Shown here in pieces: positions 3,644 through 48,914 of a stretch of 64,000 nucleotides of DNA. This DNA comes from a virus: positions 2,517 through 66,516 of the IMG/VR virus record IMGVR_UViG_3300042387_002461. One strand, given 5' to 3'. How positions within the stretch are numbered: position 1 is the first letter of the stretch; each line of letters opens with the position of its first letter. Both the position numbers and the translations under genes were made by a program. The notes beneath the pieces are model-generated. The model searched no databases and was not told where the DNA came from. It saw only the letters and a list, made by a program, of their open reading frames with translations.

Positions 3644-3651
3644 GAACTTAT

Positions 3652-4338: not shown

Positions 4339-4385
4339 AGAAGTCTCCGCTATCTTTCGATAGACTTCAACAGACTATTTCTTGC

Positions 4386-4586: not shown

Positions 4587-4851
4587 GAACTTATTTATTC
4601 AAATCAGAATCACTTCAATATCAGAACAACAATCTTTCTGATCATCTGACAAACCTTTCCAAACAATTTGACGAGCTTCTTTCTCGCTCTGCGCTTCTAC
4701 AAAGCGAATTAGTTCTCTTCCCGTTCCAAACTCAATAATTACTTCGTAATGATTCATATTTAAAATACTCTCTTTTTGTGGGTTTCTATGATATGATTAA
4801 AGATACTTCAAGACAACAACAAAAAGTAAACAATTTTAGTTAAATAGTATT

Positions 4852-6303
4852 ATGGCTATCATCAATCAATATCTCAGCACACTTACATATAGTGATCCGA
4901 CAACTGCAACACTTCAAAAAATCTTTGAAGAAGATATTCTCGGAGACAGCGCTGATACTTACTTTGAAGTTCCTCTTCCCTTTCCGATTAGTTATTTTGG
5001 AAACTCCTACAATTCTGTATTTGTTTCTTCTAATGGTTATATTACTTTTGGAGAAGGTTCGGGCAGCACTCCTGACTGGGCACAAGACTTAATGGAAGAC
5101 CATACTCCTTTTGTTTCTGTTGCAGCAGGTGATGATAGAATTAAGGAGCTCTGGGCAACAAACTCTGAACTCTCTGCAGACGCTGAGGAATTTCGCATAA
5201 GATTCAACGGCTGGTATCCTTATAATATTGAAGGTTATGGCGACGAACCGCCTACTCCTACAAATCTTACCTACGACCTTACTTTTTATAAAAACTTGCC
5301 AGAGCAGATCGATCTTCAGATTATCTCTCAGCCTGTTACAGGAATTGATGTCGAAGTCTTCAGAGATCAAGAATTTATCCCAAATGTTATTGTCAGCGAA
5401 GGCTTCTCAATACTTGCGCTTGCAGACAATGCTGCAGAGCAAGGGTTCAGAATTACTGCCAGCCTTCCAATTTCTTATCCTTACTTGAGCGGACTCAATG
5501 GCGTGCTCTATAATGGTTACTTTGAAGGTAATCCAGAGTTCTTCAAGACAGCCACTAGAGAAGGAACAACTGAAGCAAGAAATACTTTCAACGGACTCAG
5601 TGAAACCGTTGATGCTTCTTGGCAATGGACTGGATATCTCCTTTCTCCTGAAACCAATTATTATTCCTTTAATGGCAATTCCGAACATGCTTTCTGTATG
5701 TGGCTTGGTGCATCTGCTCTTGAAGCAAACTATTCATCTTCGAATATGCTTGTATCTGCAGACAATTATCAAGACTTTAATACAAGAGAAGAAAGAGTAA
5801 CATTTGCTGGATATACTCAATCAACTAATGAATTCACATTTGCTCCAGAAGTCAGCGCAAAGTTCTCTTATCTGTCTGCTGGTTCAAGAGTTGCTGGTTA
5901 TAGTCAAGTAACCGATACGAACTTTGTTCTTACTGTTGCTTCCAGAGACACCGTTACTGGAACAATCTCTGCCACCACAGACGTTATTGGACAAGATGAT
6001 ATTGGAAACGCGGACAGCTGTCTTAAAATTCCAAAAGGCATTCTTCTTCAAGGAGGAGAGTACTATCCGATCAGAATTCAATGGGGCCATCCTCCAGAAC
6101 CAACTGGAGCCAATCTTTACATAAACTTCCGCCAACTAGATGGTTACGATCCCGAGACTGGAGAAACTTATGATACAAATTCTACATCAGATTGGACCGG
6201 TCTAGCTTGGAGAGATCCAGAAACTGACGGACCAGAAAGAATCTGGAACATCTATGGAGGAATTAGCAATTACTTGAGACTCAGACTACTTGGTCACTTC
6301 TAA
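4852..6303 (+). CDS. putative virion-surface adhesin with PA14-like carbohydrate-binding domain
   Basis: GLNGVLYNGYF...SWQWTGYL...YSF...MWLG...GEYYPIRIQWG is PA14-like; N-terminal LPFPISYFGNSY..VFVSSNGYITF resembles nidogen-type domain; TAAATA promoter. Confidence 0.7.
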   Translation: MAIINQYLSTLTYSDPTTATLQKIFEEDILGDSADTYFEVPLPFPISYFGNSYNSVFVSSNGYITFGEGSGSTPDWAQDLMEDHTPFVSVAAGDDRIKELWATNSELSADAEEFRIRFNGWYPYNIEGYGDEPPTPTNLTYDLTFYKNLPEQIDLQIISQPVTGIDVEVFRDQEFIPNVIVSEGFSILALADNAAEQGFRITASLPISYPYLSGLNGVLYNGYFEGNPEFFKTATREGTTEARNTFNGLSETVDASWQWTGYLLSPETNYYSFNGNSEHAFCMWLGASALEANYSSSNMLVSADNYQDFNTREERVTFAGYTQSTNEFTFAPEVSAKFSYLSAGSRVAGYSQVTDTNFVLTVASRDTVTGTISATTDVIGQDDIGNADSCLKIPKGILLQGGEYYPIRIQWGHPPEPTGANLYINFRQLDGYDPETGETYDTNSTSDWTGLAWRDPETDGPERIWNIYGGISNYLRLRLLGHF

Positions 6304-6503
6304 AAATACTTCAAGACAACAAAAGATTGCTTCTGTTCACCTTTCCATAAGAAAGTTAGAAGGTCTCTGCCTGAAGAATCTTCTTCACAGTTCAGAGTCT
6401 CTATGTTCTTTACAGGAACACACCTTCCTTCAACAATAACACAAGGAACTTGTTCAGGAAACCAGTTCTTCGATGAGTAATAATCTTTCTCTGGCTTTGT
6501 CAT
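6300..6503 (-). CDS. hypothetical protein, paralog of 7700..7882
   Basis: Shared VPCV...ED..G.DL.TF...G...QS. Confidence 0.7.
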   Translation of the reverse strand: MTKPEKDYYSSKNWFPEQVPCVIVEGRCVPVKNIETLNCEEDSSGRDLLTFLWKGEQKQSFVVLKYF

Positions 6504-6846
6504 TTATTAGCAAAATTTCTTAATCAAATATATAACGCCGACCCAAAAGCCAATGCATCCACACAAACCTGCTAACAAAACTTTTCCTCTAAAAGACATA
6601 ATCTTCCTTTCTAATTTAGAATTGCTACCCTATTATGAATTATTGGATGCAAGTCTGGATCATTATTATTAGCTCGAATAAATTCTCGTGCCTCTTCTTC
6701 TGTCATAATCTTAGCGAAAGATGGTCTGCAAGCAATAGATAATAAGAGCTCCGAAAACTATTCCAGAAAGGAAGAGTTGCAAGCAATCAATATGTGATGT
6801 TTTGTTTTTGTTCATAATTCAAATGTAGGACATGAAGCAGGACTTG

Positions 6847-7047
6847 TCAACAAACCTTTGAAAAGAATTTGGAAACTTTTCTTGTAAGCCACATAGGAAT
6901 AAGCTTATAAGATCGATCAAGATCTTCAAAGCTTCTCTCACAAGAGGGACAAATTGGCTCTCTAGAACGATCTTCTAAAGAATTGTTCCTTCTGCCTTTT
7001 CTTTTACAGACCTTGCAGACATATCGCCTTGAAGGAAGTTTGTTCAT
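6847..7047 (-). CDS. small Zn-ribbon protein
   Basis: CKVC...CPSC; start corrected to ATG 7047. Confidence 0.55.
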   Translation of the reverse strand: MNKLPSRRYVCKVCKRKGRRNNSLEDRSREPICPSCERSFEDLDRSYKLIPMWLTRKVSKFFSKVC

Positions 7048-7052
7048 CGATT

Positions 7053-7289
7053 TCAAACAATCCGAGCAGTCTTCACAGAACCTTCGAGAGGTCGAAAGAA
7101 GTAGCAATGATTAGAGTCAGAATTCCACCCACTGAAGACAAAGTCTTTTCCATCAAACTTCAGAACCTTCTTTGTGAGCTTCTTAACTTCATCCCAACCA
7201 TCTACATCAATCTCTAGAAACTCCCTCCGAACATCCGGACGAATTGAATGACGGACTGATAACTCTTCAGTAATTGTTGCTTTCTTCAT
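7053..7289 (-). CDS. hypothetical early protein
   Basis: Behind TTGACTTGTCC promoter. Confidence 0.75.
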   Translation of the reverse strand: MKKATITEELSVRHSIRPDVRREFLEIDVDGWDEVKKLTKKVLKFDGKDFVFSGWNSDSNHCYFFRPLEGSVKTARIV

Positions 7290-7333
7290 TACTCAAAAGC
7301 ATCCTCGAGAGACTCGGACAAGTCAACAAAAGT

Positions 7334-7681
7334 TTATTTCATCTTTTCTTCTCTGCAAGCCTTAACATCCTTCTTGCATTCGCTAGCAGATTTAAACTTG
7401 CCAGCAAGCTTTGGAAAGATCTCTTCAATCTTTTCTAGTGCACAGTCTTTAATAATTACTGTATAACGACCTTGAGAATCTTGAGAAACCGAAAATACTT
7501 TGCTGCAGCTCTTAACCTTATCCATTACTTCTTCGGATTGATTAACAAATTGACCTTTTGCAAGCTTCTTGATAAGATCTCCGCAGTCTTGAACTTCTTT
7601 TTCAATAGAACTATTGCTATCTTTCTTTTCGAGAATTGATTGATAGGCTTCTTCTAAGAGTGTTTGGTCTTTTGATTTCAT
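7334..7681 (-). CDS. MKSKDQxLLEEAY-family protein
   Basis: TAAGTA promoter; shared N-terminus. Confidence 0.8.
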   Translation of the reverse strand: MKSKDQTLLEEAYQSILEKKDSNSSIEKEVQDCGDLIKKLAKGQFVNQSEEVMDKVKSCSKVFSVSQDSQGRYTVIIKDCALEKIEEIFPKLAGKFKSASECKKDVKACREEKMK

Positions 7682-7699
7682 ATGGGTTACTTAATCAAA

Positions 7700-7882
7700 T
7701 TAATAAGCTGGTCGAGAAGTAATTCGAGATTGCATCTCTTTGCCTTCATAGATAAAAGTCATAAGATCATATCCCTGAAAGTCTTCCGAGATGTCAACGA
7801 ACTCTACCTTGTCAGTAGCAATCCATTCTCCATCTCCGACGTGCACACAAGGAACAGTCTCCATAAAGTATTCGTCTTTCAT
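7700..7882 (-). CDS. hypothetical protein, paralog of 6300..6503
   Basis: Sequence similarity; TAATATG coupling. Confidence 0.7.
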   Translation of the reverse strand: MKDEYFMETVPCVHVGDGEWIATDKVEFVDISEDFQGYDLMTFIYEGKEMQSRITSRPAY

Positions 7883-7883
7883 A

Positions 7884-8231
7884 TTATTTGTTTTTTTTTT
7901 GGTAGAAGTCATGGTAAACTTTATAAGCTGCTACTTGACCTTTCAAGACGCTTAATTCTGCATGCGACCACTTTAGCAATTCATTACGGTCCTTTTCAAG
8001 GCTGCGACATTTTTCTTCAAGTGCTTCTGTGTATCCGATTGCAGAAGGATCTCCTGCCCATTTATTTTTCAAAGCATCTGTCTCCGGTGTGTCTCCTAGC
8101 GCTACTGGATAGTATTCTCTCATTGTGTTCCTAAAACTTTCCTTTAGGGAACTTGTATCTAGCGTATTGGTGGGCGAAGAAAAGAACTTCGCTACAGGAT
8201 TGTCTTCTCCTTTAGTTATTTCGATTATCAT
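7884..8231 (-). CDS. hypothetical protein
   Basis: Likely start MIIEITKGED at 8231. Confidence 0.6.
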   Translation of the reverse strand: MIIEITKGEDNPVAKFFSSPTNTLDTSSLKESFRNTMREYYPVALGDTPETDALKNKWAGDPSAIGYTEALEEKCRSLEKDRNELLKWSHAELSVLKGQVAAYKVYHDFYQKKNK

Positions 8232-8721
8232 TTCGCTCCTCCAATGCTTCGCGAGCAATGTTGCCCATCGTTCTCCAGTCCTCGTAAGTATCTTCTCCAT
8301 CAACGAAGACTGTCTCAATCTTTGATAACGCTTCGAACAGTTCGTTACGCTCGCGTTCTGCTTGAGCCCATCCTTCCAAGGCTTTCGTGTGCGCTTCATC
8401 GTAGATGTGTGCAGATTTCAGTGCTACATCTCTTGCGCTAATCGCCTCATCTCGCTCTTTATAAACACGCTCGAGTTCTTCATATTGCGCGTTTGAAAAG
8501 TTATTCATGTCTTTGATTTGCTTTTCGAGACTCTCGATTCGCTCTGCAAAAATTCGCATTGCTGCCTCGGATACATCTTCTTTTCCTTGACAGTGCTCAG
8601 ACAAATTATAAGCTGCTCGCCCGTATTCCGACGAATTTTCAGGATCTTTAATAGGGCTACACTCTAGTAAAGCAAAAGCTCTACATAAAGCTAGCTCTGA
8701 TGTTGCATTTGTATCACTCAT
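8212..8721 (-). CDS. hypothetical coiled-coil protein
   Basis: Start MSDTNAT by ATGA overlap; ERDEA-type heptads. Confidence 0.65.
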   Translation of the reverse strand: MSDTNATSELALCRAFALLECSPIKDPENSSEYGRAAYNLSEHCQGKEDVSEAAMRIFAERIESLEKQIKDMNNFSNAQYEELERVYKERDEAISARDVALKSAHIYDEAHTKALEGWAQAERERNELFEALSKIETVFVDGEDTYEDWRTMGNIAREALEERNDNRNN

Positions 8722-8927
8722 TTCGTGCCCTCCAAAGCATCCCATAGCTTTTTCCTGAACTCGTTCCGCGCTCGCTCCTCCGCCATCCAATCACGAGCGT
8801 CCGCTACATTTGGTGTAGCTTTCAAGACACCCTTTGTCATACGGATAGCTGTAAGAATAGCGTCACAATCATCTAATCGTGTATCTTTCTCGAGCAAGAC
8901 TGTTATTGTGTTTATTCTGTCACTCAT
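8718..8927 (-). CDS. hypothetical protein
   Basis: ATGA-coupled both sides. Confidence 0.7.
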   Translation of the reverse strand: MSDRINTITVLLEKDTRLDDCDAILTAIRMTKGVLKATPNVADARDWMAEERARNEFRKKLWDALEGTK

Positions 8928-9355
8928 TTTGCAATCTCCTTCACTTCAATAATATATGGATATTCTTGAAAGTACCAATTAAGAATCTTATTGCCTTTAA
9001 TCTTAATAGTATACTTCTCTCCTACTTTCAGACTACTATAGATCTCATCACTATTCCAAATCTGGATAGGAAACATAAGGTTTGATACTTCATAGACTCC
9101 CTTATCGGTTCCTACCATATAGTGAGAAGACTCTCCTCCATCTACATATAACCTCTCAATGGTTATAACTTGTTCCTCTTCTGGACCAAAGCCATTCACT
9201 CCATATGCATAATCAATAGCTACAAATGGAAGATACATTGCCAGTACCATTATGGTAGCAGCTACCGTTGCTCCTAGAAAGATGAATATAGGATGACATT
9301 GAATAGCCCAATCAATTAGTCTATCGATTAGTGGTTCTTTTTTATTCATATTCAT
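8924..9355 (-). CDS. membrane-anchored protein (DUF1523-like)
   Basis: N-terminal TM helix; YMVGTDKGVYE...NSDEIYSSLKVGEKY...YPYII. Confidence 0.55.
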   Translation of the reverse strand: MNMNKKEPLIDRLIDWAIQCHPIFIFLGATVAATIMVLAMYLPFVAIDYAYGVNGFGPEEEQVITIERLYVDGGESSHYMVGTDKGVYEVSNLMFPIQIWNSDEIYSSLKVGEKYTIKIKGNKILNWYFQEYPYIIEVKEIAK

Positions 9356-9542
9356 GTTTTATAACTCCTTTAAGTGACACTGCACCGCAAACACTGCAGT
9401 CAATATCTTCCAAGGCATCAATTAGTTTAGAGATTGCTGTAGCTTCTGGATGCTTATCAAGATGAGCAATCTTCGCAGCAGCTACCAAAGCGTCATGTGC
9501 CTGTTCGAAGCAACACATTAGTTCGTACTCAGTCGTTGTCAT
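9342..9542 (-). CDS. hypothetical protein
   Basis: ATGA-coupled ORF. Confidence 0.6.
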   Translation of the reverse strand: MTTTEYELMCCFEQAHDALVAAAKIAHLDKHPEATAISKLIDALEDIDCSVCGAVSLKGVIKHEYE

Positions 9543-9757
9543 TGATTCTCCTCTAGCCACTTCTTCTCTTCTTCGATTATTCCCTTGAGCTGTTTAGTAG
9601 TTTGTTTCAAGACATCTAGCTCATATCCTTGTAGTTGGAGTTTCTGTAGAGTCTCATATATGGCCCCGATAAGGTACTGATGGCCTTGATTCAAACCACA
9701 AACCTGACTAGCCCTTTCGTCTAAGGCCCCCAGGTAGTCTTTAATAATGTCGTTCAT
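9539..9757 (-). CDS. hypothetical early protein
   Basis: Behind TTGACTTGTCC promoter. Confidence 0.7.
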   Translation of the reverse strand: MNDIIKDYLGALDERASQVCGLNQGHQYLIGAIYETLQKLQLQGYELDVLKQTTKQLKGIIEEEKKWLEENQ

Positions 9758-9792
9758 GCTGCCATAATCGTATCAGACTATGGACAAGTCAA

Positions 9793-10089
9793 CTATCTAT
9801 TATCAGTAATACCTTCTGGATTGTGCCTCTCGAAAGCATCAACAATTTGCTCGATATCGTCCGGGTTATCGTAACGATCATAGTCCTTGTGATTAGGAGG
9901 CTGATAGATATAAGCAACAGTATGATATGTTGCATCCCCTTCCCAATCTTCATCAGTCAATGTCTCGAGAGTTACCTCAAAAGACTTCGGATCCTTTAAA
10001 GCAGCTTCGAAATAATCAACTCTATTGCTAAGTCCCTCACAAACTTTAGTATAAGCTTCTTCTAACAATGTCTGGTCTTTAAACTTCAT
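9793..10089 (-). CDS. MKxKDQxLLEEAY-family protein
   Basis: MKFKDQTLLEEAY. Confidence 0.8.
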   Translation of the reverse strand: MKFKDQTLLEEAYTKVCEGLSNRVDYFEAALKDPKSFEVTLETLTDEDWEGDATYHTVAYIYQPPNHKDYDRYDNPDDIEQIVDAFERHNPEGITDNR

Positions 10090-10090
10090 G

Positions 10091-10348
10091 CTATTTTATT
10101 TCTATTCCTCCACCTGGTCCTTGTTCGTAAATCTTGATCTTAAAAGCTTCAGGATAGGCCATTCCTTGAAGCCATGCATGTGCCACTTGCTCACTAAAGA
10201 AAGCCTCCTTGAAGATATCACCTTCCTTGTCTGGTCTGACAATAATATAAACCCTCACTTTCTCGTTATGTTCGCCTTCTTGCTCATTGACGGGCAATTG
10301 GATCTTTGCATAAGCTTCTTCTAATAATTGTTGGTCTTTGGACTTCAT
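10091..10348 (-). CDS. MKSKDQxLLEEAY-family protein
   Basis: TAAATAAACTCATG; shared N-terminus. Confidence 0.8.
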   Translation of the reverse strand: MKSKDQQLLEEAYAKIQLPVNEQEGEHNEKVRVYIIVRPDKEGDIFKEAFFSEQVAHAWLQGMAYPEAFKIKIYEQGPGGGIEIK

Positions 10349-10356
10349 GAGTTTAT

Positions 10357-10602
10357 TTAAGCGTTATGCATTCCAAATTGATAAGCAGCAGCCATAGCAT
10401 CTCTTACGCTTGGGTCTGATACTAGATTCGGAATATTAAAATTGCTTGCAATCGTGTCCAATAATTTTTGAGTCTCAGAATCCAATGAGTGATAAGAACG
10501 CGGCTGTAAACTATAGTAAGATTTCAATTTTTGTTTTTCTGCTTCTGTTCCGCGCAGAGACGTATAAGCTTCTTCTAATAATGTTTGGTCTTTGGACTTC
10601 AT
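10357..10602 (-). CDS. MKSKDQxLLEEAY-family protein
   Basis: GATAAATAAACTCATG; shared N-terminus. Confidence 0.8.
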   Translation of the reverse strand: MKSKDQTLLEEAYTSLRGTEAEKQKLKSYYSLQPRSYHSLDSETQKLLDTIASNFNIPNLVSDPSVRDAMAAAYQFGMHNA

Positions 10603-10619
10603 GAGTTTATTTATCTAAC

Positions 10620-13223: not shown

Positions 13224-14013
13224 AACAGAAAAGATCTTAGAGAGTAGTTGCGGACAAGTCGAGAATTATTTTTGAAGTTGTCTTGTCCTTTTGAATAGTT
13301 GCCAATAAATCCATCGAAAGGATGGAAGGATGGCTTTCAGGAAGCGCTCTCGTCTCTCCACCGAATGCGCTGGTAGCACGGCAGAGAGAAAAGCTATGGA
13401 GAGAAACTTTGAGAGAGAAAGTCTCTTAATCTCTTTCGTTCTTCCATTTAGACCTCTTATAGTCTTTTGCAGACTTGAAGGCTCTTGGAGCTGGAAGAGT
13501 TGGTTTACGAATTGATTTAAGACATTCTAGCTGAGTTGGAAGCTTTTTCATACAACAGACCTTCAAGAAACCTTCTGGACATCTCAACTATTTTTTGGGT
13601 TGCTTGAAGGGAATCAAACCCTCTCCGTCTCCGCCACAAGGAGAAGTGCTAATCGTTACACCACAAGCAACATATGAAATTAACTCTTCTTTCGCGGCCT
13701 TCCAACTTTCTTTGCAAGAACTTTCTTCTTTGAAGGATAAACTGTGCTCATGAACTTTGGCATCTCCTCACTTGCACAAGACCTAATAATCCTCAGATAA
13801 GCCTCTGGAGGCAGACAAGTTTGGTAATTGTTCTCAGAAGCAGAATTAAAGCCGTTCATAGAATTTCAAAAAGATAATCTGGTTCCAATCCATTTTCGTA
13901 AAGAACTTCTTCAGGATCTTCACCATCAAGTACCATCAATCTCATTTCCTTGATTGAGTGCTTTGCTTCTTGTTCCGTCAGGCCTTGGCCAGACATTAGT
14001 GCTTCTTTGAGGC

Positions 14014-15024: not shown

Positions 15025-15110
15025 AAAAGAGATCTTGGAGGATGAACAAGGACAGCTCAAGAAGATTTTTTGAAATGTTTTGGAAAAGTTTCTTTTAGTT
15101 CGTAGTGAGA

Positions 15111-15154
15111 CATGGCGATTCTTGGCACTAGGATCGTTTATAAGGCGTTTTGTT
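15111..15154. repeat. 44-bp dispersed intergenic repeat, copy 1
   Basis: CATGGCGATTCTTGGCACTAGGATCGTTTATAAGGCGTTTTGTT. Confidence 0.85.
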
Positions 15155-15162
15155 TGAGAACA

Positions 15163-15203
15163 GGAAAAGGACCTTTGAAAGGGTTTAATTTTTCAAAGGT
15201 CCT
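15163..15203 (-). terminator. intrinsic terminator downstream of tmRNA
   Basis: AGGACCTTTGAAA/TTTCAAAGGTCCT stem plus T tract. Confidence 0.75.
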
Positions 15204-15309
15204 CAGTGTTATGAACAAAGTTTGTTAGCAAGGTCTTCATTGGCTACCAGGTCTTAAACCTGCTGGACGAAGATTACTTTTTAGCCTGCCTACTCGGCAC
15301 TAACTAAAG

Positions 15310-15980
15310 TGGTGGAGGCGAGGGGACACTTACCCACAAATTTCTCTGTGGCGTGGACTATGTCTTCAACCCTGTGGGCTGACGGATGCTTATTTTTAAA
15401 TGAGCGAGATGCTCATTTTTTACCTGTACTCAGGTAGTCTCTGAACGTTCTTCTTTTTTAAGAAGCTCCGCTTAACGTTGCCATGCAACTTTTTAGTTGT
15501 TTAGGTTTCACTAAATTCTTCCGTTTTTTTCATCAAGCATTACTGCTTGAGGCGACGATTTTCATCGCACCCCTGTCTTTATAACGTTTACATAATAACT
15601 CTTCACATGCTTGGAAGGATTTAGCATTTGTTGACAAAAGGCTGCTATGGCTCAACGGCCTATCTTTTAATGTCTGCCTACACGAGCGAAAGGTCTCGTA
15701 TTACCTCTGTGCTTGTTTTTCCATGATCTATAACAGTTCATCAAAACCTCTGCAGTTCAAAGTAGATTTAGAGGATCCTCTACTAGGCTCTTAGGCAGCA
15801 AGAACTTCGCAGCCAAAGCTAGCGAGGATCTCGTCAGCGTTGTTTACAATGCTCTCGGCTTCTGCCAAGATATCAGAATTAGATTCTGCTTTTAGTTTTT
15901 AATCGATTTTAACGTGGCCATCGATCAACCACGGCATGCGTCATTAGTATCAATCATAAATCGATATCTATTGCGCCCCC
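15310..15980 (-). ncRNA. ssrA: tmRNA (exons 15980..15564 and 15326..15310)
   Basis: 5' GGGGGCG pairs with 3' CGCCTCC-A-CCA incl. G3.U70; pk1 CCGTGG/CCACG and TTGATCGAT/ATCGATTAA; tag frame 15889..15791 ending LAA-stop; T-arm AGGGG-TGCGATT-CCCCT after intron removal. Confidence 0.95.
15327..15563 (-). mobile_element. group I intron (237 nt, no ORF) in tmRNA T-loop
   Basis: P1 GCGAU/GUCGC with U.G at 5' splice site; CAGAGACTA and AAGACATAGTCC (P7 GACUA/UAGUC); terminal G. Confidence 0.92.
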
Positions 15981-16225
15981 ACGTAAATTATTTGTCAAAG
16001 ATCATTTGAAACCATTCGGTCTCTTTCTGCAACTACTATCTCTTACTTATCTCAAAAGTCTATTGTTAATTTCCGAAACTCTTCAAACTGCTCGCTGCAA
16101 CAACATTTCTCAAGTTCTCATTCTCTTGCCGGACCTTCTCTAGTTCTTTCTGAAGGTCTTCACAAAGCTTCCGAAAAGCTTCTCTTTCATTCCAAAGTTT
16201 GTCAAATTGTTGATGATTCACTCAT

Positions 16226-21347: not shown

Positions 21348-21680
21348 TCAAGCAATTTTAAATTTGAACTGCTTGAGTTGAGTTTTGGTCCACCTGTTGT
21401 GCAGATTAGAACCAGACTCAAGAGCCTTCTCAAGAGTATTCATGACGTTCCCGTTTACAAATGCATGACAATCAAGCTCATACGTACCTTCAATATATTC
21501 AGCACCAATTACACTATACTGTTTAATGTTGCTAAGGATCTCAGCCTGAATGATATCTCCAGTCTTAATCTCTCGTCCGAAATGTTTAGTAAGAAATTCT
21601 GTAAATGATTGAAGCTTGAGAAGCTTCTTCTCTTGCTTGAGTTGATTGATCTGTTGTGTGAGTTCTTTTTGTTTGTTCAT
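21348..21680 (-). CDS. hypothetical early cassette protein
   Basis: Own promoter; stop overlaps next -35. Confidence 0.75.
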   Translation of the reverse strand: MNKQKELTQQINQLKQEKKLLKLQSFTEFLTKHFGREIKTGDIIQAEILSNIKQYSVIGAEYIEGTYELDCHAFVNGNVMNTLEKALESGSNLHNRWTKTQLKQFKFKIA

Positions 21681-21722
21681 TACTCAAAAGATATTAGAGA
21701 TTGTTGAAGGACAAGTCGAGAA

Positions 21723-21905
21723 TTATTTTGACTTAATGATTTGTATTTGAAATTCCGAATTATCACGCATCTTCAAGACAATTCCAGAATTGTTTGTAAG
21801 AAGACCTTTTGCTTCAAACGTTTCAAAGTCTTTGATCATTCCATCTTCATTTTGCGCAAAGCCAAAAACTTCCATCAAATAACTTTCTAGTTCGAATGCT
21901 TTCAT
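21723..21905 (-). CDS. hypothetical early cassette protein
   Basis: Start corrected; TFEAKGLLTNNSGIVL. Confidence 0.7.
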   Translation of the reverse strand: MKAFELESYLMEVFGFAQNEDGMIKDFETFEAKGLLTNNSGIVLKMRDNSEFQIQIIKSK

Positions 21906-21968
21906 GGTTTTTATTCTAGAGATTGTTGAAGGACAGCTCAACGAAATTTTCTACAGTTGTGTAGTGGC

Positions 21969-22175
21969 TCAATCAAGAAATACAGGAGTGGCTTCTCCAA
22001 CATATGCTCCTGCAACATTAAATTCAAAGCATTCCAGAGCCTCTTCCTCTGTCATATCTCTTTGAAAGATTTCCAGAACTTTTGCTTTAGAATAAACTGC
22101 AACAGGCTGATTGAATTGCTTGCCGGTTCCAATCAAAGCCTCTTCCAAACCATCACAAAACAATATTTCTTTCAT
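21969..22175 (-). CDS. conserved phage protein (DG.EEALIG...AVY...EEA.E.FEFN..GAYVGE.TP)
   Basis: Recognisable widespread phage motif. Confidence 0.75.
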   Translation of the reverse strand: MKEILFCDGLEEALIGTGKQFNQPVAVYSKAKVLEIFQRDMTEEEALECFEFNVAGAYVGEATPVFLD

Positions 22176-22424
22176 AATCAATTCAACCAAGCTTTTTGTT
22201 CAAGTCCTTTTGCAGTTAGTTCAGAAAGTGCTTTCAAATATTCTTCTGTTGTCGGATCTTGCTTGAAGGCTTTTGAAAACAATTCAAGGAAGTCAAAACC
22301 TCCAAAGTCCTTCTCTTGTTCTTTTGAGATAATAGTCATACAAAAACTTTCTGAAATCTTTTTGGACTCGACAACAATTATTTTGAATTATTTTCAAGAA
22401 GGTCTTTTAAAGCCCGTGCACAGA

Positions 22425-22468
22425 CATAGCGATTCTTGGCACTAGGATCGCTTTAAAATCGTTTTGTT
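22425..22468. repeat. 44-bp dispersed intergenic repeat, copy 2
   Basis: CATAGCGATTCTTGGCACTAGGATCGCTTTAAAATCGTTTTGTT. Confidence 0.85.
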
Positions 22469-22782
22469 TAGTTTTTGGGAATTATGGTCGACTCAGCATC
22501 AAATTCCCTGAGAAGTGTGAATTCTTCCTCATCACCGTCAGAATTGATAAGCGTCAGAGTGCTTCCTTCAATCAGAGCAACTTGGTTGTCGCCTTCATAA
22601 AAAGAAATCTCTACAGTCAGATTCTCATCATCAAATTCCTCTTCCCAAGAAACATACATGAATTCATTTGAGTCATCATCCTGCACTCCCATCAAGGTTG
22701 GTTCAATTAAACGACCTTCCAGAACAATAGCAGTGCTCAGTTGGAGTAGGTCATAGGCTTGATGTAGATTTACTTCTTTCAC
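22468..22782 (-). CDS. hypothetical acidic protein
   Basis: GTG start behind TTGACTATCC promoter. Confidence 0.7.
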   Translation of the reverse strand: MKEVNLHQAYDLLQLSTAIVLEGRLIEPTLMGVQDDDSNEFMYVSWEEEFDDENLTVEISFYEGDNQVALIEGSTLTLINSDGDEEEFTLLREFDAESTIIPKN

Positions 22783-22884
22783 TCGAAAAGTCTCAATGCT
22801 TTTGGAGGATAGTCAAGCGAAGCGTGAGGAATATTTTTTTTGAAAATAGTTTGTTGATTAGGGTTGAAGAGATCTCTAATTATC

Positions 22885-23340
22885 CTCAGACAAATATCTC
22901 AAACCATCTCTGTAGTGCAAAATGGTTTGACGAGATCGAGCAAACTGAATGATCGAATCGCAGTTGGCATAGGCCAATGAACAAATTGCTTCTCGTTAAA
23001 AAACACCCATGGTGAAAGTTCTGGCTGGATCGTAATCATGGACTGCAGGATATCCGACGTTAAAAATCTCAAGACTGTTCCGAGACGAGGGAACAATTCA
23101 ATCCAAATGACTGCTTATATAGGAACCGGAGGCAGTGGTGTTTTGATACCAAAAGAATTGTGGCTTACAGACCTGATGTGCGAAAAGGCCCGTACTAAGA
23201 GTACGAAATTTGCATAGTTCATTCTTTCCATTTGACGGAGGGATGAACTATGCTCAAGAACCCACCGAAGAGTATCCTTAGTAGTTGATAATAAAGAAGT
23301 TAGTCTGAAAGCTAACGCCTTCGGTGTGAAGAAATAAAAA
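22885..23340 (+). ncRNA. large structured non-coding RNA (family unassigned)
   Basis: At least nine hairpins with G.U pairs on + strand; promoter-like TTGATT-N17-TAATTA upstream; no credible ORF. Confidence 0.7.
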
Positions 23341-23366
23341 AGAGTTGCTGCTCTAAGAAAAAAAAA

Positions 23367-23444
23367 ACTCAAGTCCTACACTAATAACAATTTTATTGCT
23401 TAATATGAAAAAAGTAATGAAAAGTAGGACTTGAGTGATAAGTA
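23367..23444 (+). promoter_or_regulatory. long hairpin abutting late promoter GATAAGTA of HNH gene
   Basis: ACTCAAGTCCTAC/GTAGGACTTGAGT 13-bp inverted repeat; same architecture at 34855 and 62295. Confidence 0.7.
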
Positions 23445-23447
23445 CTT

Positions 23448-24407
23448 ATGCTTAATATGAATAAAATAAACCTACGTAACCAAGATGGCTCTCTGTCTCC
23501 AGAGGCACAACTATTACTATCAATTGACCTAAAGTCTTTTTCAACCGTAGAAGAAAAGAAAGCCGCTCGAAAACTTTTAGATGAATTTAGAGCTAAACTT
23601 TCTAAAGAGGACGTAAAAGAGTTTCAGAGATTGAAGAAATGCATAAGAAGTAAAAAATGGGCTGCTGAAAATCCTGCAAAATGCAGGGCAAGTGACGCAA
23701 AGTGGAGAGCTAAGAATCCTGAAAAAGTAAAGCAAGACAGTGCAAAATGGTGGGATGAAAATCCTGACTATGCTGCTGCTTGGCGGGAGAAAAATCCTGA
23801 AAAGACGAAGGAAAGCAATGCAAGATGGTATGCTAAGAATCCTGAAAAGTCAAAGAAAAACAGCGCAAAGTGGAAAGCTGAAAATCCAGAGAAAGCAAAT
23901 GAAAGCAGCGCAAAGTGGAGAGCTGAGAATCCTGACTATGCTGTTGCTTGGAGAGCTGAGAATCCGGACTACCATGATGATTGGAGAGCTGAGAATCCCA
24001 GACACCATGCTGAATGGCGCGCAGCTAATCCCGAAAAGGTAAAAAAAGAACGAAGCAAACCTAAAAATAAATTAAGAAATGCTGTCCTCACAGCTTTCAA
24101 AAGAATAGGTCAAAACAAACCAACAAACACTCTCAAACTGTTAGGATGCACTTGGGAAGAAGCTAAAGCTCACTTTGAAAGTCTTTTTCTGGAAGGAATG
24201 ACTTGGGAAAATCATGGAAGAGGAGAAGGTAAGTGGCACATTGATCACATCCGTCCTGTAGCTTCTTTCAAGGGAGCTAGCGAGGAGGAATTAAAACAAA
24301 TGAATCACATTTCTAATCTCCAGCCTCTTTGGTCAGCTGATAATATCAGAAAAGGAGATAAATGGGATGGAGAATTAAACTCTGAAATATTAAACTTTGA
24401 AGTCTAA
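23448..24407 (+). CDS. HNH endonuclease with W(R/Y)AENP tandem repeats
   Basis: LLGCT...EGMTWEN.G...WHIDHIRP...NHISNLQPLW..DN; about 11 repeats of 10-14 aa. Confidence 0.85.
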   Translation: MLNMNKINLRNQDGSLSPEAQLLLSIDLKSFSTVEEKKAARKLLDEFRAKLSKEDVKEFQRLKKCIRSKKWAAENPAKCRASDAKWRAKNPEKVKQDSAKWWDENPDYAAAWREKNPEKTKESNARWYAKNPEKSKKNSAKWKAENPEKANESSAKWRAENPDYAVAWRAENPDYHDDWRAENPRHHAEWRAANPEKVKKERSKPKNKLRNAVLTAFKRIGQNKPTNTLKLLGCTWEEAKAHFESLFLEGMTWENHGRGEGKWHIDHIRPVASFKGASEEELKQMNHISNLQPLWSADNIRKGDKWDGELNSEILNFEV

Positions 24408-24411
24408 TCTT

Positions 24412-24840
24412 TTAAGGAACAAAAAGATCTCCTTGAAAAATGTAACCTGTAATCCAACACCTCGAAGCGTCCTTCACAAAAATGTGCTCCGAGGACAATT
24501 TAGCAGACTCACAGTCCGTGGCGATAATCAATACAACATCACCCTCAGAGGCAGCTCTTACAAAATCTCTCAGAACATTCAAACCATTCTTCAGAGACAA
24601 TGAAGAACCATTGTACCATCTTACATTTTTGAAAACCCAACGTTCAAGTTCTTCATCTCTCATGTCATTCAAAAGTTCTCCGAAGCAATCTTTTAGAATT
24701 GCTTTATTGAGAGGGTCAACTGAAGGCTTTAAAAAGTTGTCTTTGAGAATTTGTTTTGAGTCCTCAATTGAAACTCCTTTATAGCCAATGAAGTTTGGGT
24801 CCTTAGTGAGATTATAAAGATCTTTGAAGTTGTTTGACAT
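24412..24840 (-). CDS. hypothetical late protein, weak ADP-ribosyltransferase-like N-terminus
   Basis: GYKGVS.....I.....LKPS pattern. Confidence 0.55.
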   Translation of the reverse strand: MSNNFKDLYNLTKDPNFIGYKGVSIEDSKQILKDNFLKPSVDPLNKAILKDCFGELLNDMRDEELERWVFKNVRWYNGSSLSLKNGLNVLRDFVRAASEGDVVLIIATDCESAKLSSEHIFVKDASRCWITGYIFQGDLFVP

Positions 24841-24875
24841 GCTTTTAAATTATCTTACAACAGCTTTAGAATTTT

Positions 24876-25184
24876 TCAAATCGTTTGATGAATTGTTGGC
24901 AAGCCAAGAACAAATCCAACTTTCTCAACTACTCTGTGACCCTTTCCGCCAATATGCCAAAGATAATCTCCAGAAGGAATCTCACTTACCTTCCAATCAT
25001 AAATCGTTGCAACAGTATCTTCGTCAAATTCTAGAATCCATTCACAAGTCACCTTTCCGTCTCCAGAATGATCTCGAATTGGTTCACCAAGCTTCTTGAT
25101 AAGAGTTTCAAGATTTGCTTTAACATAGCCCCTCAAAGAGGTTTCGTTTGATACTGATGTGTCTGTAGTTACTTTGTAGTTCAT
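24876..25184 (-). CDS. conserved phage protein (TSLRGY...GEP...DGKV..EW...ATIYDWK...WHIGG)
   Basis: Recognisable widespread phage motif. Confidence 0.8.
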   Translation of the reverse strand: MNYKVTTDTSVSNETSLRGYVKANLETLIKKLGEPIRDHSGDGKVTCEWILEFDEDTVATIYDWKVSEIPSGDYLWHIGGKGHRVVEKVGFVLGLPTIHQTI

Positions 25185-25426
25185 TTTGTAATAATGTAGT
25201 TGTCTAGAATATATTCAGAAGGATTTTCAATTCCAATCTCCTCTTCCAGAACTGCTCGCAAGTCATCAATTGATTCGCAATCATCAAACTTCTTTTTGAG
25301 AGGATCGTGCACATCTTTCTTCCACTCTGCAAGCTCTTTTTTGTCTTCGCAATATTCTTCAGCCTGGCTGAGAAGAAATTCAAGTTCTTGTTTCGCAACT
25401 TTTTCGATAAGGTCTTTAAGATTCAT
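25181..25426 (-). CDS. hypothetical early cassette protein
   Basis: Start corrected. Confidence 0.7.
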   Translation of the reverse strand: MNLKDLIEKVAKQELEFLLSQAEEYCEDKKELAEWKKDVHDPLKKKFDDCESIDDLRAVLEEEIGIENPSEYILDNYIITK

Positions 25427-25467
25427 AACAGGATTGATATTAGAGATTGTTGATGGACAGCTCAAGA

Positions 25468-25725
25468 TTATTCTTCAACTGCTCCAACCAAATTGACTGT
25501 TTCGTTTACGATATCAATTGACACAATAGTTTTGAAAAGCTCTTCGAATGTTTCAATAATCTCATTGAATTTACTCTTGCTTTCTCCATCCCATTCTTCT
25601 CCAGTAATTGCAAGATGAGTTTCACTGAGACCAATTTGACTGTCTCCTCGCTCCTCCCAAAGTTCGTTGCAAAGCTGATTTGCAAATTCGTAATCCAGAC
25701 CTTTTGTAGTTTGATTAGTTGTCAT
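25468..25725 (-). CDS. hypothetical early cassette protein
   Basis: Own promoter. Confidence 0.7.
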   Translation of the reverse strand: MTTNQTTKGLDYEFANQLCNELWEERGDSQIGLSETHLAITGEEWDGESKSKFNEIIETFEELFKTIVSIDIVNETVNLVGAVEE

Positions 25726-25952: not shown

Positions 25953-26031
25953 AACAAAATTGATCTTAGAGATTGATGTTGGACAGTTCAAGAACCTTTT
26001 TGAAGATCTTTTCAATATCTCCGTGTGCAAA

Positions 26032-26075
26032 CATAGCGATTCTTGGCTCTAGAATGCGTTTAAAATCGTTTTGTT
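26032..26075. repeat. 44-bp dispersed intergenic repeat, copy 3
   Basis: CATAGCGATTCTTGGCTCTAGAATGCGTTTAAAATCGTTTTGTT. Confidence 0.85.
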
Positions 26076-27660: not shown

Positions 27661-28875
27661 CTAAATGTTCATTTCTTGGCTACTCTGGACTATAAGCTCA
27701 GAGCCATCAGTTTTAAAGAACCCATCAGGCTTCCAATAAAAGCCGTCACCGAGATTCAATTTCTGACCAAGAAAAGCAAAAGGTACTGGAGAAAGATCTT
27801 GCTCATGATTTAGAGCTGCGTTTAAATCAGCATCTATCTCATTCTTGCATCCTTTACAGGAATAAACTTTCTTTTTCCTATTCGCTTTTCTTACCAGTCC
27901 ACAATTAGAGCATCTCTGAGAGCGATAAGCACAAGACTGCTCTACAACTGGAACCTCCAGCTCTTCACATCTGCGTTTAATCTTATCACGTATCTCAGGA
28001 TTGCTCCAATGGGACATACTTCTAGAGGTAGATTTTCCAAGTCTTATATTAGAGACCTTTTCAAGACGAACCTCTTTTACGTCTTTAAAATTGAGTTGGT
28101 TAACAGAGTAGTTAACGAAATTCTTTTTGTGAGTACAAGCTTTCTTGAAAGCCTTAGAGCCTTTCTTTTTTCTAGAAAGCTTTGCAATAATGCTTTCGTA
28201 AGAATGTCCGTGAGGACAATACTTGGGTGTAGTTTGTCCATCACTCAGCGTACAAAGATCTTTCATTCCTTGATCAATGCCGATAATCTTGTCTCCTTGC
28301 TCGTGTGGATTGCGTTCCCAGTCCCAAGAGAGTTGAAAGCGATCTTTAAAAAGTTTTAGCGATCCGCACAAAGTGGCTTTTCTGTCCTCTTTCCATTTAT
28401 CATATTGAGAACTCTTGTTGATAGGAATTAAAATTTGTCCATATTTAGAACCAACGTGACGAATTCTAACAAATCCTTCAAAATGACCTTCTTTGTCTAT
28501 TTCAAAATCAACACAATTGGAACTGAGTTGAGGAGCCACAAACACGATATTTGGCTTAGAGAACTTAACGTCTTTTACGTCTTTGTTTTTATGTTCTTTG
28601 ATCCAATTCTTTCTTCTTTGTTTTTCGATAGCAGAACGAATAATTGCTCCTGCTTGATTGACAGCACATTGAAAAGCTTTTCGACTCAGCTCAGTTTCTA
28701 CAGGAATTGTCTTGTAGTCAGGAAATTTAGGTAATTCTAGCTTCTCATTTAAGTTATCCCAAAGATAATCTATAGACGCGAGACAGGCTTTGCTATAATC
28801 TTCAACAAAAACAAGGAGACGATCTTGCTTGTCTTTATTTGCAAAGGTATAAGAATGTCTTGTTGAACCGATCAT
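27661..28875 (-). CDS. tnpB: TnpB RNA-guided endonuclease
   Basis: RuvC-I IIGIDQG, RuvC-II VRLE, Zn finger CSNC/CKGC, RuvC-III DADLNAALN; all three acidic residues present. Confidence 0.92.
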   Translation of the reverse strand: MIGSTRHSYTFANKDKQDRLLVFVEDYSKACLASIDYLWDNLNEKLELPKFPDYKTIPVETELSRKAFQCAVNQAGAIIRSAIEKQRRKNWIKEHKNKDVKDVKFSKPNIVFVAPQLSSNCVDFEIDKEGHFEGFVRIRHVGSKYGQILIPINKSSQYDKWKEDRKATLCGSLKLFKDRFQLSWDWERNPHEQGDKIIGIDQGMKDLCTLSDGQTTPKYCPHGHSYESIIAKLSRKKKGSKAFKKACTHKKNFVNYSVNQLNFKDVKEVRLEKVSNIRLGKSTSRSMSHWSNPEIRDKIKRRCEELEVPVVEQSCAYRSQRCSNCGLVRKANRKKKVYSCKGCKNEIDADLNAALNHEQDLSPVPFAFLGQKLNLGDGFYWKPDGFFKTDGSELIVQSSQEMNI

Positions 28876-31061: not shown

Positions 31062-31162
31062 AATGGTTGAATCTTTAAATACTCTCAATGCTCTTGAAGG
31101 ACTCCTCAAGATTCTTTTTTTGAAAACTGCTCTCTGAATTGCTCTCAAAGACCGCAGGCATT

Positions 31163-31206
31163 CATAGCGATTCTTGGCGCTAGAATGCGTTTAAAATCGT
31201 TTTGTT
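31163..31206. repeat. 44-bp dispersed intergenic repeat, copy 4
   Basis: CATAGCGATTCTTGGCGCTAGAATGCGTTTAAAATCGTTTTGTT. Confidence 0.85.
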
Positions 31207-31680: not shown

Positions 31681-31792
31681 TGGAAGGAGACTTTGGTTGG
31701 GATCGAACCAACGGCTTGTGCTTGTTCCCCAGCATTTGGTCCTTCACCTTGAGGGGGCTACTGCTCTGCCAACTGAGCTACAAAGTCTTCTC
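31681..31792 (-). tRNA. non-canonical tRNA-like element (no assignable anticodon)
   Basis: Acceptor GACTTTG/CAAAGTC, TA, D-arm GCTC-AGTTGGCA-GAGC, T-arm GTTGG-TTCGATC-CCAAC; 49-nt atypical anticodon/variable region; 3' TCCTTCCA. Confidence 0.7.
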
Positions 31793-34854: not shown

Positions 34855-34935
34855 ACTCGAGCCTTGCTCCAACAAGAATTTATATCGACCAAAATATGAA
34901 AAGTATGTCGGAAAGCAAGGCTTGAGTGATAAGTA
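34855..34935 (+). promoter_or_regulatory. long hairpin abutting late promoter GATAAGTA of HNH gene
   Basis: ACTCGAGCCTTGCT/AGCAAGGCTTGAGT. Confidence 0.7.
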
Positions 34936-34949
34936 ATTATGACCAAATT

Positions 34950-35924
34950 ATGAAAAGTTTATCATTATATAACCTAGATGGCTCTCTGTCTCTAGAGGCA
35001 CAGCAGCTACTATCACATAGACCCGACGGCGTGTCAATAGCGGATTGGAGGAAAACGTTAAAAAAATTTAGAGATCAGCTGTCTCCAGAAGATCTTAAAG
35101 AGTTTGAAAGACTCAGAAACAATAAGCGATATGCAAAACGGAGAGACACAAAACGCAAACGTAAAGAACAGCAGATTACCGAACCTCTGGCGAAAGTAAG
35201 TTTATATGAACAAGACAGAGTTTTGCGTGCAGAAGCACAGCAGCTACTATCACATAGACCTGATGGCGTGTCAATAGCGGATTGGAGGAAAATGCTAAAA
35301 GATTTTAGATCGCAACTTTCCTCAGAAGATTGCAAAGAATTTCAAAGACTCAGAAAAAATAAGCGAGATGCAAAACGGAGAGCTGAGAATCCTGAAAAAA
35401 TAAGAACGGAAAATGCAAAATGGAGAGCTGAAAATCCTGAAAAAGTAGCAAAATGGTATGCTGAAAATCCCGAAAAAGCAAAAGAAACCAATGCTAAATG
35501 GAGAGCTGCAAATCTTGACCACACGAACAACTACCACAAGCAACGCAGAGCTACAGACCCTCTCTTCCATCTTCATTGCAATATGAGAAGTAATTGCAGG
35601 AGAGTTGTTAAACAGCTATCTCTCGGAAAGAAACCTGTAAGCACATTTAAATGGATTGGATGCTCTCCAGAGGAACTTAAAGCTCATCTCGAATCTCTCT
35701 TCACAGAAGGAATGACTTGGGAAAATTATGGCAAAGACGGTTGGCACGTTGATCACATTCGTCCTGTGTGCTCATTCACTGCAGAAGAATGGGAACAGGT
35801 CAATCACTATACTAACCTCCAACCTCTTTGGGCTGAAGACAATCTTGCTAAGATAGTTTTTGATAAACGACAAAGAGTAAAGAAAGAGACTCCTGCACAA
35901 GAAGAGTCTCCTCCATTGTTATGA
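34950..35924 (+). CDS. HNH endonuclease with duplicated N-terminal domain and W(R/Y)AENP repeats
   Basis: EAQQLLSHRPDGVSIADWRK twice; GCS...EGMTWENYG..GWHVDHIRP...NHYTNLQPLW..DN. Confidence 0.85.
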   Translation: MKSLSLYNLDGSLSLEAQQLLSHRPDGVSIADWRKTLKKFRDQLSPEDLKEFERLRNNKRYAKRRDTKRKRKEQQITEPLAKVSLYEQDRVLRAEAQQLLSHRPDGVSIADWRKMLKDFRSQLSSEDCKEFQRLRKNKRDAKRRAENPEKIRTENAKWRAENPEKVAKWYAENPEKAKETNAKWRAANLDHTNNYHKQRRATDPLFHLHCNMRSNCRRVVKQLSLGKKPVSTFKWIGCSPEELKAHLESLFTEGMTWENYGKDGWHVDHIRPVCSFTAEEWEQVNHYTNLQPLWAEDNLAKIVFDKRQRVKKETPAQEESPPLL

Positions 35925-39397: not shown

Positions 39398-39443
39398 TGA
39401 AGTTATTTATCTCTAAAAAGTCTTTCTGACGCCCGTCGCAAGA

Positions 39444-39487
39444 CATACTGATTCTTGGCACTAGGATCGTTTTAAAAGCGTTTTGTT
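39444..39487. repeat. 44-bp dispersed intergenic repeat, copy 5
   Basis: CATACTGATTCTTGGCACTAGGATCGTTTTAAAAGCGTTTTGTT. Confidence 0.85.
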
Positions 39488-42602: not shown

Positions 42603-42629
42603 GAGAGAAACAAACATTAAATAATCTTC

Positions 42630-48913: not shown

Positions 48914-48914
48914 T

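Follow-up and report, generated by a model that had tools for sequence, protein, structure and literature searches.

What does a phage keep in a gap of 665 nucleotides (nt) in which no gene has been recognized? In the 64,000-nt stretch analysed here (the window), an array of small genes fills the minus strand from about 10.8 to 41 kb, and the gap (22783–23447) lies between a minus-strand gene (22468..22782) and a plus-strand gene for an HNH endonuclease (23448..24407). The original prediction placed a non-coding RNA (ncRNA) here, transcribed against the array and directly upstream of the HNH gene, and this arrangement is borne out by the minus-strand orientation of the array and by the HNH start at 23448. 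The stretch is probably a separate gene for a structured ncRNA of an uncatalogued family, with its own plus-strand promoter, and the HNH gene a passenger cassette at its side. The RNA body (22889..23340, plus strand) is non-coding, is matched by contigs from RNA libraries on 22902–23412, and has a homologue in a lake metagenome contig, L106. To our knowledge, phages have few large structured RNAs (ROOL, GOLLD and some orphans), and a function is not known for any of them.

The window is taken from an uncultured virus record of 66.5 kb that is estimated to be 37% complete, and sequence of this phage is present in lake and freshwater metagenomes, with parts of the locus in about 20 public runs. 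The longest open reading frames (ORFs) of the gap measure 85, 65 and 59 amino acids (aa), and searches of Pfam and PHROG gave no family match for the two longest. Codon usage, scored with 30 long ORFs of the window as the training set, gives negative values (−0.09 to −0.55) for every one of the six frames of the gap, and by the same score seven neighbouring genes reach +0.24 to +0.44 in their true frame. On the ORFs and these scores, a decayed or recoded gene was rejected. No tandem repeats were detected in 22780–23460, and no transfer RNA (tRNA) or transfer-messenger RNA in the RNA stretch. The nearest tRNA genes are at 13596–13670 and 31688–31787, the closest some 8.3 kb off; the second of these, on the minus strand, is an Rfam tRNA call over 100 nt (44 bits) that ARAGORN does not report, and may be an interrupted or long-arm tRNA. 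A role as an antisense regulator of other phage genes was rejected, the best complementarity or identity elsewhere in the window being only 13 nt (E = 0.36).

Promoter and transcript start

Upstream of 34 genes of the array stands a near-identical promoter, cTTGAnCTGTCC-N-AATCTCTAAgATC, the end of which is some 10 nt from the ATG. These promoters stand on the minus strand (10859–41033), with one more on the plus strand (41647–41688), and given the short distance to the ATG the small genes are expected to have almost leaderless messages.

The promoter of the RNA (22854..22882, plus strand) consists of TTGATT (22854–22859), a 17-nt spacer and TAATTA (22877–22882). In its geometry and in the phage-specific ATCTCTAA motif ahead of the −10 element it agrees with the array promoters, whose CTGTCC box it does not have. 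Scored with a matrix of the −35 hexamer and extended −10 element derived from 22 array promoters, it ranks 42nd of 127,884 positions and fourth on the plus strand, so that what had been described as a promoter-like element is now supported by the consensus of the phage itself. A generic sigma-70 scan missed the site. The sequence is conserved in L106 from the upstream edge of this promoter (22845) onward, and only one substitution falls in 22845–22884. Transcription on the plus strand would proceed from this host-type (sigma-70-like) promoter with a start, judged by its position, at about 22888–22890, and the transcript probably runs on past 23340.

A homologous locus and its pattern of conservation

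L106, found among 80 metagenome loci fetched with the HNH protein as query, is a 5.9-kb lake contig that holds the stretch at 919–1561 with 85.6% identity over 658 nt (nhmmer, E = 2.8e-132), the counterpart of the RNA body being at 1005–1457. Gene order is common to the two loci: a 104-aa gene on the minus strand, the RNA, a hairpin, the HNH gene on the plus strand, and a gene of 142 or 144 aa on the minus strand. L106 also holds a second HNH gene further on.

Identity to L106, measured in 40-nt bins in window coordinates, changes abruptly along the locus. In the flanking minus-strand 104-aa gene and its upstream spacer (22440–22839) it is 55–85%. The promoter bin (22840–22879) stands at 88%, nearly identical from 22845 on, and is followed by bins of 98–100% in the 5′ domain (22880–23039), where there is a single substitution, at 22898. 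Identity then falls to 50–85% in the central domain (23040–23279), which also has insertions or deletions of 3, 2, 1 and 1 nt, and rises again to 90–98% over a block made up of the 3′ domain, an A-rich linker, the hairpin and the opening 70 nt of the HNH ORF (23280–23519; 98% in the bin 23280–23319 and 92% in the bin 23320–23359). From 23520 onward, in the rest of the HNH ORF, it is 40–47%.

Purifying selection on two putative RNA domains does explain this pattern. Another possibility is that the stretch has no RNA function and is decayed cassette DNA, its identity to L106 coming from recombination or co-conversion and the RNA-library contigs from read-through or DNA carry-over. Endonuclease genes are known to bracket high-identity blocks in other phages (PMC10448857). 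However, recent homing transfer or co-conversion does not explain the identical blocks here, because the HNH gene is diverged and a diverged middle splits the blocks, unlike a single co-conversion tract; in addition, the left edge of the identical block is the promoter. We consider a stretch without RNA function improbable.

The new RNA family has so far two members, those of the window and L106. No RNA homologue was found in public phage genomes (blastn and megablast), in viral contigs around relatives of the two flanking genes, at 80 loci of HNH relatives among viral contigs, or at 22 loci around relatives of a nearby 272-aa gene and in five whole related virus records. Exact-pattern scans, which may omit records very near the window, returned no matches in metagenome contigs (a 20-mer), in viral contigs (a 27-mer from the 5′ domain; a 21-mer from the hairpin/start region) or in prokaryote genomes (a 21-mer). 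The sole match of a 19-mer from the variable middle, L104, is glycine-rich coding sequence of a high-GC phage and was dismissed as a chance match. A covariance model of the 5′ domain (R1), run over the window and 184 loci (1.18 Mb), matches only the window itself and L106; a 21-bit match in L056 was rejected, as it lies inside a 215-aa ORF and is without one hairpin.

Contigs from RNA libraries

Contigs of two metatranscriptome runs from two studies (X22 and X23) and of two DNA runs (X4 and X7) were compared with 21500–25500. Run X22 contains a 356-nt contig at a depth of 15.3 that lies on 22910–23265 with 2 differences, and a second contig that spans 23248–23412 and then enters HNH sequence, while run X23 contains two contigs, on 22902–23052 and 23262–23376. 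In both studies the RNA-library contigs that closely match the phage are confined to 22902–23412, and this cover starts 12–20 nt after the transcript start expected from the promoter. The depth in X22 and X23 is zero on 21500–22839, 23510–24045 and 24582–25385, all of which the DNA runs cover at least partly; X22 also has low-depth, more diverged pieces on 24056–24459, in the 3′ part of the HNH gene, and on a promoter repeat at 25421–25467. That two studies assembled just this stretch points to an abundant, stable RNA, and the avoidance of the flanking genes by the closely matching contigs argues against mere decayed DNA.

Predicted fold and covariation

All ten pairings proposed in the original prediction are present at their places in the window. 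On the plus strand, with the position of the first letter of each arm in brackets, these are CAAACCAT (22900) with ATGGTTTG (22922), TTGGC (22964) with GCCAA (22973), TGTTCC (23076) with GGAACA (23090), ACTGCTT (23110) with AGGCAGT (23130), GGTGT (23137) with ATACC (23146), CGTACT (23191) with AGTACG (23200), GCATAGTTCAT (23212) with ATGAACTATGC (23243), CACCGAAG (23263) with CTTCGGTG (23319), GTTAGT (23299) with GCTAAC (23311), and the long-range pair TCAGAC (22886) with GTCTGA (23303). The letters of this last pair are invariant relative to L106, and a transcript start at about 22888–22890 may cut into the 5′ arm of the candidate pairing.

The RNA can be divided into two conserved domains and an arm between them. 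The near-invariant 5′ domain (22889..23059) has hairpins at 22899–22930, 22963–22978 and 23007–23041, and substitutions only at 22898 and 23055. In the RNAalifold consensus, long-range helices join it to the 3′ domain (22886–22891/23303–23308, 22988–22993/23295–23300 and 23042–23059/23266–23285) and enclose the variable arm. The third of these, with 23042..23059 as its 5′ strand, is predicted to close the variable domain, and both substitutions that fall on it (C23055T and T23282C) keep plus-strand pairing. The variable central domain (23060..23262), a peripheral arm with several hairpins, has its helices kept by compensatory change. It includes a helix of ACAAUUC (23093–23099) with GAAUUGU (23155–23161), spanning 23093..23161 and enclosing hairpins at 23110–23136 and 23137–23150, and a 17-base-pair (bp) hairpin at 23212..23253 with arms 23212–23228 and 23237–23253. 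In the conserved 3′ domain (23263..23340), the strands 23266–23285, 23295–23300 and 23303–23308 take part in the long-range helices or, alternatively, a CACCGAAG/CUUCGGUG hairpin forms; both are predicted, and the invariance of the domain does not choose between them. Then follows the A-rich linker (23341..23367, with A10 at 23358–23367), which is conserved in L106 and which on the minus strand is a T-run following the hairpin of the HNH cassette.

Comparison with L106 shows how this fold has evolved. Of the 82 pairs of a hand-built model, L106 retains 58 unaltered; 11 differ in one partner and 12 in both, and a single pair is broken. Three of the seven pairs of the 7-bp helix at 23093–23161 have changed on both sides, giving GUGAUUC/GAAUCAC in L106, and in only 1 of 300 column shuffles did a helix of at least seven pairs with at least three double changes arise. 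The 17-bp hairpin has new letters in L106: 8 pairs have changed on both sides and 6 on one, and no pair has been broken; at least ten pairs with at least five double changes arose in none of 300 column shuffles. This hairpin, of 17 or 18 bp, stands at the equal place in the two sequences, and its stem length was reached in none of 2000 shuffles of either, which speaks against a stretch without RNA function. The covariation that the original prediction had proposed to look for in homologues is thus present beyond the column-shuffle control in two helices, in one homologue.

Strand of the RNA

The plus strand is favoured by the promoter, by the consensus energy, by the L106 hairpin and by the one-sided changes. 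The alifold consensus energy is −99.8 on the plus strand versus −87.2 on the minus strand, and the L106 counterpart of the 17-bp hairpin has −21.8 kcal/mol on the plus strand versus −9.3 on the minus. All 11 one-sided changes give G.U or Watson–Crick pairs on the plus strand, and four G.U pairs of the L106 hairpin would become mismatches if read on the other; the expectation that G.U pairs favour the plus strand therefore holds.

A functional RNA on the minus strand has certain observations to recommend it. The dinucleotide-shuffle z-score is slightly better on that strand (−3.35 versus −2.69), and variants T22926C and T23215C, both from one DNA contig of run X7, make A.C mismatches in plus-strand stems and G.U pairs on the minus strand; so does G22955A of run X22, a plus-strand mismatch and minus-strand G.U, in one of two predicted local folds. 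Furthermore, the cassette hairpin with T10 (23435–23358) reads as a minus-strand terminator. This terminator, however, lies upstream of the region on the minus strand and would stop transcription before entry, no array-type promoter is found on the minus strand in 21943–25426, and the energies and every one-sided change favour the plus strand. We find a minus-strand RNA hardly credible.

The adjoining HNH gene

The HNH gene (23448..24407, plus strand) encodes a protein of 319 aa with N-terminal repeats of the W-x-A-E-N-P-E-K type and a C-terminal HNH motif. The protein matches phrog_1035 (E = 7.6e-11) and phrog_28061, and the Pfam HNH family weakly (E = 0.017, residues 257–305). Domain searches gave no RuvC, bridge-helix or IscB features, and sequence searches no relative with a solved structure. 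A paralogue, 41% identical, is at 34926..35924, and each of the two phages has two paralogues; the second gene of the window has an internal 181-nt duplication of its 5′ part (34965–35382). Relatives are patchy in distribution and occur in multiple copies; viral contigs contain 83 and metagenome contigs 286, and many of these relatives are from giant-virus bins.

The RNA is found upstream of only two of the four related HNH genes of the window phage and L106, and at none of 159 other loci of HNH relatives. Moreover, the RNA-adjacent HNH gene of L106 (1562–2531) is frameshifted: tblastn places residues 1–228 in one frame and residues 219–319 in another, and the split near an A-run means either a decaying copy or an assembly error. 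Beside this frameshifted gene the RNA core is 98–100% conserved. At the level of sequence, the HNH gene is shown to be dispensable for the conservation of the RNA.

These findings bear on the proposal that the RNA is a functional partner of the HNH protein, acting as guide, cofactor or inhibitor in the manner of omegaRNA/HEARO with IscB or of a type III antitoxin. The co-occurrence that had been suggested as a check came out divided, in that RNA and HNH gene are adjacent in both full loci while two of the four sister genes have no RNA. A 319-aa protein with a weak HNH match and no RuvC or bridge-helix content, an RNA with neither tandem repeats nor a match to HEARO or any other Rfam family, its absence from the 159 loci and the frameshift in L106 all contradict a partnership, and this part of the original prediction has become very unlikely.

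The HNH gene has the marks of a free-standing homing endonuclease, namely an HNH catalytic motif, a patchy multi-copy distribution and decay in copies, and it is, by sequence, most likely a homing-endonuclease passenger that invades and then decays beside a conserved gene. An alternative in which it is carried by a group I intron was rejected, as exons are lacking and the HNH stop is separated from the next gene by only 4 nt. Homing-endonuclease genes cluster near essential genes (PMC10448857), and the free-standing endonucleases of T4 adjoin their target genes, with SegB inserted between tRNA-Arg and tRNA-Ile and the tRNA intergenic region as its target (PMC2988022). The present locus is like that of SegB (PMC2988022) in having an endonuclease gene in a non-coding gap beside conserved genes, with an upstream regulatory hairpin. 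It differs in that SegB is a GIY-YIG enzyme with tRNA neighbours, whereas the HNH gene adjoins a 450-nt RNA and is known from sequence alone. The HNH gene would, then, be a free-standing homing-endonuclease cassette with its own leader hairpin, lodged beside a conserved RNA gene.

The cassette hairpin (23368..23435) is formed by CTCAAGTCCTAC (23368–23379) and GTAGGACTTGAG (23424–23435), and a hairpin of this kind stands upstream of all four related HNH genes (23368–23435 and 34858–34935 in the window, about 1480–1550 and about 3680–3750 in L106). The stems covary, and each loop holds a direct copy (13–18 nt) of the first codons of its own gene; here the loop segment 23397–23409 copies the start region 23449–23461. 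Loop copy and gene start change together, for example from TAATATG to TAAGATG in both. A short ORF runs from the ATG in the loop and ends in a conserved CTTGAGTGA in three of the four copies, and a minus-strand T-run follows the hairpin at both window copies and at the RNA-adjacent copy of L106. The sections of PMC2988022 available to us describe a comparable stable hairpin just before the nuclease start for I-TevI, I-TevII, I-TevIII, segB, Aeh1 mobE and seg43(25), and that of seg43(25), like the one here, stands ahead of the start region and leaves it uncovered. A loop with a co-varying copy of the start, a short upstream ORF and an opposite-strand T-run are differences from the T4-family leaders, and are not found in those sections.

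Separate RNA gene or leader of the HNH message

The main rival to a separate RNA gene treats the entire stretch as a long 5′ leader of the HNH messenger RNA that acts in cis. The 23042–23059/23266–23285 and CACCGAAG/CUUCGGUG pairings would form alternatively and, with the downstream hairpin, set the timing or level of the nuclease; this reading appears unlikely to us. A number of observations nevertheless weigh against a separate gene. The stretch from 23340 to the HNH start has no intrinsic terminator, in both full loci the HNH gene comes directly after the RNA, and the conserved block extends unbroken across linker and hairpin and 70 nt into the HNH ORF. One diverged RNA-library contig links 23248–23412, and with it the 3′ domain, to sequence of the HNH C-terminal region, 101 other letters standing in place of 643 nt. 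The mutually exclusive pairings in the 3′ domain would also suit a leader, and T4-family endonucleases are under the control of leader structures (PMC2988022).

Other observations on this side concern the kind of data used. The RNA runs consist of contigs only, which do not settle strand, ends or DNA carry-over. With only two full-length sequences, the 5′ and 3′ domains are too invariant to show covariation, and recombination between lineages could give the appearance of selection there. In the 17-bp hairpin, the L106 register was set by structure, which favours the count of double changes. An open search for any double-change helix was not above chance (19 observed versus a shuffle mean of 15.4), and the smaller helices are accordingly unproven; neither the TGTTCC/GGAACA hairpin as a covarying helix nor a possible loop pseudoknot, a pairing of 23077–23081 with loop 23122–23126, can be told from chance with two sequences. 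Folding energy is ordinary within this genome and is weak evidence: after correction for GC content, 36 of 210 same-size genome windows have lower residuals on the plus strand and 16 of 210 on the minus strand. The near-null search and the ordinary energy would also suit a stretch without RNA function. The description of the RNA as highly structured is accordingly supported by the two covarying helices, the 17-bp hairpin being one of them, seen in the comparison with L106 and not by energy.

Against the leader stands the relation of the RNA to the HNH genes. The hairpin alone, without a 450-nt leader, serves two of the four sister genes; conservation is much stronger in the 5′ domain than in the HNH ORF; and in L106 the HNH gene is frameshifted and the RNA intact. 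The contig depth on the RNA body is also above anything downstream, which is a weak measure.

Comparison with known RNAs

No Rfam 15 family was found for the RNA or its L106 copy, either in a scan of the whole window at gathering score or, with E allowed up to 10, in 1.6 kb, the 471-nt RNA and the L106 copy; the best scores for the RNA are 10–19 bits, against gathering scores of at least 40. A group I intron at another place in the window is recognized by this library with 66 bits (15334–15576, minus strand). This intron, whose host gene is not evident, lies in a second ORF-free stretch of about 950 nt (15061–16005). The comparison with ROOL, GOLLD, HEARO, OLE and group II introns that had been proposed gave no match, and of the two alternatives originally offered, a new RNA holds and a divergent member of the ROOL, GOLLD or HEARO type is abandoned. 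A search of full-text literature returned no description of this RNA, a result that cannot prove its absence from the literature.

The RNA is like ROOL and GOLLD in being phage-borne and several hundred nt long, with many helices, long-range pairings, and a protein partner and function that are not known. It differs in that it is shorter and that neither ROOL (RF03087), searched for on the window, 1.6 kb, the 471-nt RNA and the L106 copy, nor GOLLD (RF01998) gave a covariance-model match; nor does it lie beside a tRNA island, whereas tRNA genes are the usual neighbours of GOLLD. GOLLD has one universally conserved part and one less conserved part (PMC12286853), and this division recurs in the present RNA; GOLLD can also lie in phage-derived tRNA clusters together with an HNH gene (PMC6582537).

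With HEARO/omegaRNA of IscB or IsrB, the RNA has in common that it is structured, a few hundred nt long and directly upstream of an ORF with an HNH motif. It differs in having no RF02033 match, a 319-aa neighbour without RuvC, where IscB would have a split RuvC domain into which the HNH is inserted, and sister HNH genes without RNA. TnpB omegaRNA, which shares the strand of tnpB and overlaps its 3′ end or follows it, does not fit either, since the TnpB-like gene of the window is on the minus strand (27661..28875) and the RNA is 4.3 kb away on the plus strand; this gene, inside the array, has a Cas12f1-like TNB domain (E = 2.3e-13) and an OrfB_IS605 match. OLE (RF01071) gave no covariance-model match. 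For a group I intron (RF00028) there is nothing at the RNA at E up to 10, with a promoter and not an exon upstream and no plus-strand ORF, and for a group II intron, which usually encodes a reverse transcriptase, there is no Rfam match and no reverse transcriptase domain in the neighbouring ORFs.

In type III toxin-antitoxin systems, an antitoxin RNA of tandem repeats precedes the gene for an endoribonuclease toxin, and the layout of toxIN-type loci (promoter, RNA, hairpin and nuclease gene) resembles that of the present locus. A ToxIN-like system is nonetheless not indicated, as there are no tandem repeats and the downstream protein is of the HNH DNA-endonuclease type.

A possible mode of action

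On the reading that the stretch is a separate RNA gene, the RNA would have a near-invariant bipartite core, made up of the 5′ domain (about 22889–23059) and the 3′ domain (about 23263–23340), which predicted long-range helices would clamp together, and a fast-evolving peripheral arm (23060–23262) that appears to keep only its helices. It may act in trans as a stable RNA. Because the core is constant letter by letter, contact of the core with a conserved component of host or phage is suggested, and it would presumably bind this component.

The HNH gene could be expressed by read-through from the RNA promoter, with T4 SegB among its tRNA genes as a model. The RNA would then have to be released from the HNH message or to outlive it, probably through cleavage in the A-rich linker. 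By analogy with segB and segG, which RNase E processes (PMC2988022), the linker is a plausible processing site. The nuclease, for its part, may target alleles of the locus that are without the HNH gene.

A bolder and more tentative proposal, which we would not yet rely on, is that the window and L106 are the founding pair of a new class of large phage RNAs, given a 170-nt 5′ domain that is almost letter-perfect between phages with neighbouring genes at about 55–85% identity. If so, the RNA might dock on or act on a part of the host machinery that does not vary (the ribosome, RNA polymerase or an RNase, for instance), or might itself be catalytic or self-assembling like ROOL and GOLLD, and the homing endonuclease would exploit the invariance of the 5′ domain as its target.

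The anatomy of the RNA is unusually clean, with a promoter of its own and an invariant core split by a freely evolving arm; environmental RNA evidence comes from two studies, and the adjoining homing endonuclease marks the RNA as a conserved target. The roughly 250 nt of the core are a compact candidate for structural work and pull-downs. The locus also adds a case to the recurring pattern of a selfish nuclease beside an RNA gene, which can be used as a handle in the search for further phage RNAs.

Other features of the window

An element of about 80 nt occurs in five copies in the window (15074–15154, 22388–22468, 25995–26075, 31126–31206 and 39407–39487), one of which directly follows the 104-aa gene adjoining the RNA. 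Read on the minus strand, it forms a small hairpin (GCGAT...ATCGC) just before an ATG. Outside the array, at least 13 genes start with a shared peptide, M-N/K-K-D-Q-x-L-L-E-E-A-Y (2119–10619 on the minus strand and 42618–49484 on the plus strand; 44714–49971), and several of them carry repeated L-E-G-A-P-E units, which suggests a large family of putative paralogues with repeats of the leucine-rich type.

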